Notes under the pieces: generated by a model
The model's input: only the letters and a program-made list of their open reading frames with translations
Database searches by the model: none
Told to the model about the DNA's origin: nothing
Origin: a virus
Taxonomy: Duplodnaviria > Heunggongvirae > Uroviricota > Caudoviricetes
DNA: 36,379 bases
Reading direction: 5' to 3' (one strand)
Virus record (IMG/VR): IMGVR_UViG_2531839666_000016
Shown here: piece after piece, positions 31,032 to 31,655 of the stretch
Position numbering within the stretch: position 1 is the stretch's first letter
How the letters are laid out: each line of letters opens with the position of its first letter
Made by a program: the position numbers and the translations under genes

Positions 31032-31340
31032 ATGAATGAGCAGGATTTGAAGCATGTGATCGCATTGTTGCTGGAAGACGCTAAACGTTTGCAGCAGATA
31101 GAGCCAAATGCAGGCACTGAGGCCCGTATTTTGTTAGCAAAACAGGCATTAAAGACTTGCGGGGCGCAAGACCCTGATCGAACCAAGTTCATGAATTTCA
31201 TGGCTAACACGATCACCCCCCTGCCATGCAATGGAGAGAGGGTGAGCCGTGTTTATCACGACACAATGGTTAAGGCATTAAGAATCGAGCTTGATGGGCT
31301 TAGGCGTAAGATCGTGATGAACAAAATCGTTGCCAACTAA
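31032..31340 (+). CDS. Hypothetical protein, first gene of early-left operon (not N-like)
   Basis: 102-aa ORF with GGAGA RBS 6 nt upstream; no Arg-rich N-terminus. Confidence 0.4.
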   Translation: MNEQDLKHVIALLLEDAKRLQQIEPNAGTEARILLAKQALKTCGAQDPDRTKFMNFMANTITPLPCNGERVSRVYHDTMVKALRIELDGLRRKIVMNKIVAN

Positions 31341-31655
31341 GGAAGCAGACGGAAGTAAGCATGCGCTTTGTTCAAATTTGCAGACAAATATATTTGCGTC
31401 AACACCAGCACTGTTAGCAATGGAAAAAGTTTGATCAAGGATTTGTTGGCAGTTCATTGTGCTTTTGAGGATATATCCCTCTGGAATCAGTCTGCAGCAG
31501 CTATCGTCAGACTCTTTGATTGTTTTCTGGTACAGAAAGTTAAGCATTAATTCTTCAAATTTTTTGGTCTGTTCGGCTGTTGCTTCAAACAGACGAACGT
31601 GAACATAAAACTGGTTCATTAGGTTTCCTTGCTGGCTGTGTGAGAACTCCAGCAT
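31278..31655 (-). CDS. Hypothetical protein, convergent to and overlapping the preceding plus-strand ORF (likely start at internal ATG about 31619)
   Basis: 125-aa ORF; internal ATG (MNQFYVHV…) preceded by AAGGAAA RBS; contains a CC pair and several Cys. Confidence 0.35.
   Translation of the reverse strand: MLEFSHSQQGNLMNQFYVHVRLFEATAEQTKKFEELMLNFLYQKTIKESDDSCCRLIPEGYILKSTMNCQQILDQTFSIANSAGVDANIFVCKFEQSACLLPSASLVGNDFVHHDLTPKPIKLDS

Follow-up and report, generated by a model that had tools for sequence, protein, structure and literature searches.

The window analyzed here is a DNA stretch of 36,379 nucleotides from a Caudoviricetes virus (IMG/VR record IMGVR_UViG_2531839666_000016). Beyond its repressor gene cI, we examined two convergent open reading frames (ORFs) whose 3' ends share 63 bp (Table 1). 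Homology searches identified them as genes of the e14 prophage of Escherichia coli K-12, named ymfJ (102 aa) and ymfI (113 aa) in RefSeq; identity to the e14 genes was 96–99%. The coordinates, convergence and 63-bp 3' overlap that an initial annotation had given for these ORFs from the letters alone were all confirmed by the ORF list. Good ribosome-binding sites had also been ascribed to both ORFs, and a plus-strand terminator to the region after them; Shine-Dalgarno sequences were indeed found 5 nt before ATG 31032 of ymfJ (GGAGAG) and 5 nt before ATG 31619 of ymfI on the minus strand (AAGGAA), and a strong hairpin followed by a T-run was present downstream of the pair on the plus strand (about 31714–31762). 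Of the proposed size range of 113–125 aa for the minus-strand product, only the lower value held. The longest reading (31278..31655) gives 125 aa from the first ATG, but ATG 31655 is not conserved, sits inside the −10 element of ymfI and is not a real start. The 12-codon extension to this position overlaps the conserved −10 element and contains a stop codon in a distant homolog (locus L013), and the 113-aa start is therefore the real one. The same start is kept in YmfI homologs down to 32–57% identity.

In K-12 MG1655, the e14 gene order is ymfK(cohE)-ymfJ-ymfI-ymfH-xisE-intE (ymfJ, b1144; ymfI, b1143). The e14 genes match those of the window in length, in the 63-bp overlap and in location, with the repressor gene on one side and early-left genes on the other, and e14 is 96% identical to the window at the DNA level over 30937–31688. 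A megablast search with positions 30950–31750 (801 bp) found matching sequence in 1356 of the 5426 complete E. coli genomes. In 303 of these, 80% or more of the query was matched, and the complete pair is present in at least 303 of the 5426 genomes. Prophages of Salmonella, Klebsiella, Raoultella, Enterobacter and Scandinavium also carried the pair. The divergent loci compared below (L numbers) came from these genera and from metagenomes; a one-per-species scan yielded three of them, and the rest were collected singly.

Neither ORF lacked conservation. YmfJ matched PHROG 12693 end to end (E = 8.7e-70, residues 1–102 of 102) and was 94–95% identical to 102-aa database proteins. YmfI matched PHROG 8894 (E = 1.7e-41) and passed the NCBIfam YmfI_phage equivalog NF051477 (162 bits, cut-off 140; residues 1–90, 89-position model), and an exhaustive search of representative sequences returned just 12 relatives of this protein. 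Both PHROG families are listed as 'unknown function'. A Pfam search gave no match for YmfJ or for the 125-aa reading of YmfI (E ≤ 0.1), an NCBIfam search with YmfJ gave nothing, and the sources searched attach no function to either gene. As the pair is already annotated in E. coli K-12, the genes themselves are already known.

With regard to the surrounding immunity region, a third copy of the operator palindrome lies between cro and cI (30025–30039), and three of the four TTGC-N7-GCAA matches in the window (30025, 30807 and 30830) flank the region. These positions place the early-left promoter (PL) and its operators (OL) at about 30800–30870.

Table 1. Coordinates of the ymfJ-ymfI pair and of neighboring features in the window
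Feature	Position	Strand	Remarks
CII-like gene	29152-29709	-	lambdoid immunity region
cro-like gene	29702-29962	-	lambdoid immunity region
cI	30060-30752	+	helix-turn-helix (HTH) and Peptidase_S24 domains (Pfam); just upstream of the pair
Intrinsic terminator after cI	30772-30789		between cI and the OL operators
OL operators, two 15-bp palindromes	30807-30821, 30830-30844	+	TTGCATAT[CT]TCGCAA; mark the PL region
ymfJ leader	30937..31031	+	left end of the mosaic block; holds minus-strand terminator-like hairpin 30961..30945
ymfJ homolog	31032..31340	+	ATG start, 102 aa; opens the PL (early-left) operon
Dual-coding overlap	31278..31340	both	YmfJ residues 82-102 (+), YmfI tail residues 93-113 (-)
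ymfI homolog	31278..31619	-	internal ATG 31619, 113 aa
Terminator-like hairpin, candidate ymfI transcript end	31170..31156	-	inside ymfJ, about 110 nt past the ymfI stop
ymfI promoter and 5' untranslated region	31620..31688	-	right end of the mosaic block
ymfI putative -35, TTTCAC	31679-31674	-	read by eye and from conservation
ymfI putative extended -10, TGGTATGCT	31659-31651	-	17-nt spacer from the -35, then a short leader
DicF-like hairpin (12-13 bp stem) and T-run	31702..31762	+	lies outside the pair, at the start of the next mosaic block

Selection and the dual-coding overlap

Both ORFs are real genes rather than one gene and a spurious antisense frame. The pooled Nei-Gojobori ratio of nonsynonymous to synonymous substitution rates (dN/dS) was 0.15 for YmfI codons 2–92 (dS 0.74; 91 non-overlapping codons), and in YmfJ it was 0.08 for residues 2–42 (dS > 1), 0.99 for the linker (residues 43–60) and 0.24 for residues 61–81, all of these estimates pooling non-independent pairs from 9–10 sequences. 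Such values indicate purifying selection in the YmfI core and in the YmfJ modules. As dS exceeded 1 in the YmfJ N-module, no second frame is conserved in the region antisense to it.

In the overlap, the second codon positions of the two frames lie opposite each other. Nucleotide diversity in the 63 bp was 0.13–0.20, 0.05 and 0.13 by codon position, compared with 0.32–0.42 at free third positions just outside, and the variable third positions of YmfJ codons numbered 7 of 21 inside the overlap versus 18 of 21 outside (Fisher p = 0.0013). This low diversity at all positions implies that both reading frames, or a further requirement at the RNA level, constrain the overlap in the e14-type lineage. 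Its length varied by lineage, with 72 bp in L016, 63 bp in the e14 type, 42 bp in L013 and L021, and 8 bp in L022. Distant YmfI homologs (92–102 aa) lacked the tail, residues 93–113 being specific to the e14-type lineage. Judging from these sequence comparisons, the convergent adjacency is the conserved feature of the pair, and the dual-coded overlap of 63 bp was elaborated later.

Two small proteins and their persistent pairing

YmfJ was predicted to be an all-helical protein (AlphaFold2 helices 3–23, 29–43 and 73–101) and consists of three parts: an N-terminal helical hairpin (residues 1–42, ELKHVIALLLEDAKRLQQxEPNAGTEARI), the unconstrained linker (43–60) and a C-module that ends in a long helix (61–102, ITPLPCxGxGVxRVYHxTMVKALRIELxxLRxxI). 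The majority of 236 database matches to YmfJ involved the hairpin alone, joined to many different C-termini, and 16 phage records, among them Cronobacter phiES15, Aeromonas pAEv1818 and Stx phages, contained the hairpin as well. The segment encoding this N-module (31032–31157), on which purifying selection is very strong, heads the first PL gene in many enterobacterial prophages in which the C-termini are unrelated. A profile search of the Protein Data Bank (PDB) showed a non-significant resemblance between the N-module and Bacillus YfhH/GK0453 (E about 0.3), which is a lead only. The N-terminus of YmfJ (MNEQDLKHVIALLLEDAKR) is acidic and helical. It had been claimed that neither ORF resembles the antiterminator N, and in agreement with this no arginine-rich N-terminus and no Pfam match were found; by comparison with lambda N, YmfJ has no arginine-rich N-terminal motif and is not required for read-through (see below).

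For YmfI, AlphaFold2 predicted a confident beta-alpha-beta-alpha-beta core (residues 1–82, predicted local distance difference test score 83–92) followed by a disordered tail. On the basis of this model, YmfI may be a small ferredoxin-like protein with a GhoS/Cas2-like fold, which we regard as a lead and not a classification. GhoS (YjdK), a type V antitoxin endoribonuclease, has the Cas2-like ferredoxin fold that is also predicted for YmfI. However, the two proteins were just 9% identical, YmfI had no Pfam match to the GhoS family (PF11080), and comparison of the YmfI profile by hhalign with both the GhoS sequence and a GhoS alignment gave a probability of 0.3%. Their gene arrangement also differs: GhoS has a co-operonic small membrane toxin, GhoT, whereas no ghoT-like gene is located downstream of ymfI, where only the antisense strand of ymfJ is found. 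A profile search of PDB sequences with YmfI returned noise only, and a Foldseek search against BFVD gave no hit at E ≤ 0.001.

We further checked the convergent neighbor of ymfI in 16 non-redundant YmfI-bearing loci (the window, L003, L004, L007–L009, L011–L014, L016–L019, L021 and L022). The YmfJ C-module was present in the neighboring gene or DNA in all 16, such that ymfI was not seen without the YmfJ C-terminal helix within the loci examined; the partner in L007 was inferred from DNA similarity alone, and L016 retains only the helix part of the shared motif (PLxC..GV.R.YH.TMV..LR.E...L). The C-module was joined to three unrelated N-termini, namely the hairpin described above, a MEFKDLP... 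type (124 aa) and a 126-aa type. In the distant pairs (L013, L021 and L022), both partners had diverged to about 45–55% identity and were still adjacent, with the conserved helix largely outside the overlap. Pairing in these loci with a short overlap argues that physical overlap alone is an insufficient explanation. As far as comparative sequence data go, the persistent linkage is evidence, not proof, of a functional partnership.

Transcription, related systems and genomic context

ymfJ lies directly downstream of OL/PL, and a consensus promoter scan of 30600–32400 detected no promoter of its own. The region preceding ymfI is unusually well conserved: about 66 nt upstream of the gene were nearly invariant in 12 loci with coding parts that differ by up to 55% of amino acids, the distant pairs L013 and L021 among them. 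This conservation goes far beyond that of synonymous sites, and identity stops abruptly at 31688. The inverted repeat ACCAC-N10-GTGGT in the promoter spacer may serve as an operator bound by some regulator or may form an RNA hairpin in the PL read-through transcript. The candidate end of the ymfI transcript, the terminator-like hairpin inside ymfJ, was also found at the same site in Salmonella locus L008, and L009 has a different terminator-like site on the ymfI strand inside the partner gene.

Expression data from K-12 show distinct behavior of the two genes. Late in the SOS response, the log2 fold change was 4.8 for ymfJ, whose protein was detected, and 1.98 for ymfI (PMC11002266). In a second data set, the values were 4.76 and 1.82, respectively, the latter resembling those of the e14 genes lit and ymfD, which are not controlled by PL/PR (PMC10012262). 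Across these two data sets, PL/PR genes rose by 4–4.8 on the log2 scale. ymfJ was co-induced with xisE and ymfL (PMC2634741), and the YmfT (e14) iModulon includes ymfJ and omits ymfI (PMC12132413). Moreover, ExcludonFinder listed ymfI-ymfJ and sieB-ydaF among the convergent excludons of K-12 (PMC12288877). In the window, the coding regions overlap by 63 bp and candidate ymfI terminators lie further inside ymfJ; transcript overlap is reported for the K-12 homologs alone (PMC12288877). The initial annotation had viewed the minus-strand gene, nested in the early-left operon, as an independently regulated accessory module, and for ymfI this is supported by the nearly invariant promoter and by the weak SOS response in K-12, both of which point to an independently transcribed unit.

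LexA-box cores inside ymfI (31577–31592 in the window, a different position in e14) were considered and are probably coding coincidences. A near-consensus LexA box (TACTGTATATAAAAACAGTA, 30269–30288, plus strand) was observed inside cI, in the interdomain linker that joins the HTH to the S24 domain. It is present at the same place in the cI gene of phage mEp460 (L001, position 2070) and, with a different spacer, in Salmonella L008 (4760); in L009, a LexA box is located in the PL region instead (4362).

The pair had been assigned to a position beside cI equivalent to that of rex or sieB. The sieB part of this assignment agrees with Rac in both position and orientation, but the rex part does not, as the pair lies beyond OL/PL. 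In lambda, rexAB occupy the space from cI to OL, on the same strand as cI, and share its transcript from PRM. In the window, just a terminator is found between the cI stop and OL, and the likeness to rexAB consists in accessory genes near cI and nothing more: there is no sequence similarity, and only one member of the pair is on the cI strand compared with both rexAB genes. Domain searches detected neither Rex nor SieB in the proteins of the pair. The correct positional analogy is N/sieB, not rexAB.

The superinfection exclusion protein SieB (Rac, lambda and P22; PF14163), which acts by abortive exclusion of superinfecting phage, is likewise encoded by an opposite-strand gene embedded in the PL operon, with the first short PL genes before it and kil after it. 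Rac carries racR, ydaG and ydaF, followed by sieB and kilR, and sieB converges on the preceding PL gene ydaF, as ymfI does on ymfJ; YmfI-like genes also precede kil/kilR in L009, L011, L014, L017 and L019. Nevertheless, SieB is a 162-aa protein of another family, whereas for YmfI a small, soluble alpha/beta protein is predicted, its tail being disordered. YmfI gave no Pfam match to PF14163, to which the Rac SieB control scored 109 bits, and Rac YdaG and YdaF are unrelated to YmfJ. An exclusion function, if proposed for ymfI by this analogy, would be positional only. A further parallel is lambda oop RNA and cII, convergent units with overlapping 3' ends and mutually antagonistic expression. Both cases involve convergent 3'-overlapping units in a lambdoid regulatory region, but the ymfI and ymfJ RNAs both encode conserved proteins and their overlap is translated both ways under dual constraint, unlike oop/cII.

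Mosaic structure was evident throughout the region. The block 30600–30926 (the end of cI and PL) matched phage mEp460. The cassette block (30937–31688) was 96% identical to e14, 99% to CFSAN061769 and 88% to Salmonella L008, with the boundary at 30937 common to all three, and a sub-block (31212–31688) was common to loci with the 124-aa partner. The next block (31699–32400; hairpin, yfdP and yfdQ) matched mEp460, SfIV, SfV and many others. The cassette is missing from mEp460, which shares cI and the downstream block with the window; phages of that type can therefore do without the pair, which behaves like a movable accessory unit. In e14, the cassette adjoins ymfK/cohE and ymfH-xisE-intE, whereas that of the window adjoins an mEp460-type cI and yfdP/yfdQ; the window looks like a complete SfV/mEp460-like phage, and e14 is a 15-kb remnant.

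Additional convergent 3'-overlapping pairs were observed in the same slot. SfIV (L002, 2642–3269) has an unrelated one (73 versus 144 aa; PHROGs 1744 and 5286), and in Mixta (L015, 3501–3912) an 89-aa protein with the YmfJ N-module is opposed by one of 82 aa. Opposite-strand accessory genes appear to have a hot-spot in this slot just after PL.

The hairpin downstream of the cassette resembles DicF. The Rfam DicF model (RF00039) aligned over its full length at 31702–31756 with 19.4 bits, below the gathering score of 48; homologous spots scored 45.0 bits in L013, 37.5 bits in L018 and 28.5 bits in the 'ymfH' region of e14. A DicF-like motif, UUGGCGGUAxCAG, is found within the hairpin before the U-run. 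Similar elements occur in L013 (4302–4349; a Salmonella Rac-like prophage, just upstream of kilR), L018 (2741–2791) and L003 (4914–4967), and sub-threshold matches to STnc100 (RF02076) were detected at this spot in e14 and SfIV. These elements may be a diverged family of PL-operon small RNAs or terminators ahead of division-inhibitor or early genes. In the window, the hairpin is contained in a non-coding leader (31656–31898); a 196-aa ORF (31671–32261, plus strand) is an over-call, and the conserved yfdP-like gene (PHROG 204; Pfam YfdP in L008) starts at ATG 31899 and encodes 120 aa, followed by yfdQ (DUF2303, 32327–33151). In L018, the early-left operon continues (2407–2608, minus strand) with matches to a P1/P7-type C4 antisense RNA (81.9 bits), to isrK (70.3 bits) and to c4-a1b1 targets; a Phage_ASH/pRha antirepressor gene lies downstream of them.

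A proposed model of opposed transcription units with cooperating products

We propose, with a probability of roughly 0.6, that the ymfJ-ymfI cassette of e14/Rac-type lambdoid prophages comprises two opposed, excludon-type units with cooperating products. ymfJ, as the first gene after the repressor-controlled PL, would be silent in the lysogen, and cleavage of the S24-type cI in the SOS response would lead to its strong expression. ymfI, read in the opposite direction from its own extended −10 promoter, would be on in the lysogen, acting like a lysogen-expressed 'moron' in the slot that holds sieB in Rac. Its transcript should extend antisense into ymfJ over no less than 63 nt, probably 170 nt or more, and the two units may oppose each other through transcriptional collision and formation of an RNA duplex, an antisense interplay that is consistent with the K-12 RNA-seq report. 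Because the C-terminal helix of YmfJ stayed beside YmfI through large divergence and three N-terminal swaps, we infer that the two proteins have a target process in common, one of them most likely being an effector and the other its early-expressed partner or neutralizer. A bolder version, which we consider unlikely at present, holds that YmfI and the YmfJ C-helix form a co-evolving two-protein module of a previously undescribed kind, in which YmfI would be a lysogen effector with a GhoS/Cas2-like fold (exclusion, abortive infection or RNA targeting) neutralized or redirected by the first PL protein, and in which the convergent dual-coded overlap would contribute antisense coupling. The self-immunity role thereby suggested for YmfJ may be compared to that of Esc acting on P22 SieB. 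Esc gives P22 self-immunity against SieB.

Several observations weigh against the proposed cooperation of opposed units. The consensus scan that covered 30600–32400 found no promoter for ymfI, and no single ymfI terminator site was conserved across loci. The induction pattern comes from the K-12 literature, the window itself having been read from DNA, and the selection estimates carry the non-independence noted above. Simple physical linkage of adjacent DNA could explain part of the co-occurrence. PADLOC gave no defense-system match for the pair, and a tblastn search with YmfI detected no homolog in 50,697 sequenced phage genomes, so that a role in active phage biology is at most tentative.

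In an alternative reading, ymfI and ymfJ would be functionally unrelated early or accessory genes, with overlap and adjacency as by-products of compaction and of recombination joints that spare overlaps, and with no interplay. Lambdoid genomes are mosaic with sharp joints, the YmfI tail is predicted to be disordered and is missing in distant homologs, and the part of YmfJ that is always linked is short (roughly residues 69–102 in L016; mostly the overlap itself in the e14 type). We nevertheless find this somewhat unlikely, since the pairing is kept where the overlap is only 8 bp (L022) or 42 bp (L013 and L021) and the YmfJ helix lies outside it, both partners have diverged in parallel to about 45–55% identity, synonymous sites of YmfJ are constrained in the overlap (p = 0.0013), and K-12 RNA-seq flags overlapping transcription (PMC12288877). 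Opposite regulation and antisense transcripts would also suit a type V-like toxin-antitoxin system, in which YmfI is a GhoS-like RNase that cleaves ymfJ mRNA or YmfJ is a growth inhibitor restrained by ymfI RNA or protein. Both genes are cited as 'essential' in an older transposon-footprinting study of MG1655, although e14 as a whole can be deleted (PMC3922391, PMC11541549), and 'essential' genes in a deletable element are a pattern typical of immunity or antitoxin genes. However, transposon screens often miscall small genes as essential, the relationship to GhoS is unsupported by sequence (no PF11080, hhalign 0.3%), and the partner YmfJ is a soluble helical protein on the other strand and not a small membrane peptide like GhoT. 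In addition, strong YmfJ expression in the SOS response of K-12 was described with lethality unreported (PMC11002266), and a toxin-antitoxin pair appears improbable. The 'essential' score itself, as cited in PMC3922391, may be a small-gene artifact or a hint of immunity-type dependence.

Two further explanations concern one gene each. YmfJ might be an N-type antiterminator for read-through of the hairpin at 31714–31762 into yfdP...int, as it is the first PL gene, like N in lambda, and a strong terminator-like hairpin follows the cassette. But YmfJ lacks an arginine-rich motif and does not resemble the N families, and mEp460 has the same cI, PL and hairpin and yet no ymfJ, so that ymfJ cannot be required for read-through; a role of this kind is highly improbable. 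That the minus-strand ORF is spurious and ymfJ the sole gene might be suspected from its overlap with a real gene and from its lack of a Pfam domain and of homologs in sequenced phages, but this is refuted by the selection and conservation data: dN/dS of 0.15, distant homologs, a confident AlphaFold2 core, a conserved Shine-Dalgarno sequence and promoter, and an NCBI equivalog.

ymfI and ymfJ belong to the K-12 y-ome, genes whose function is unassigned, and in SOS data sets ymfJ ranks among the transcripts with the strongest induction. The conserved promoter of ymfI, its location in the sieB slot and the constant YmfJ C-helix partner narrow the experiments needed. If YmfI and YmfJ are not an effector and its self-immunity partner, they would be an ordinary, already annotated accessory pair; if they are, the cassette would represent a new small prophage system at a known hot-spot for genes that benefit the lysogen.

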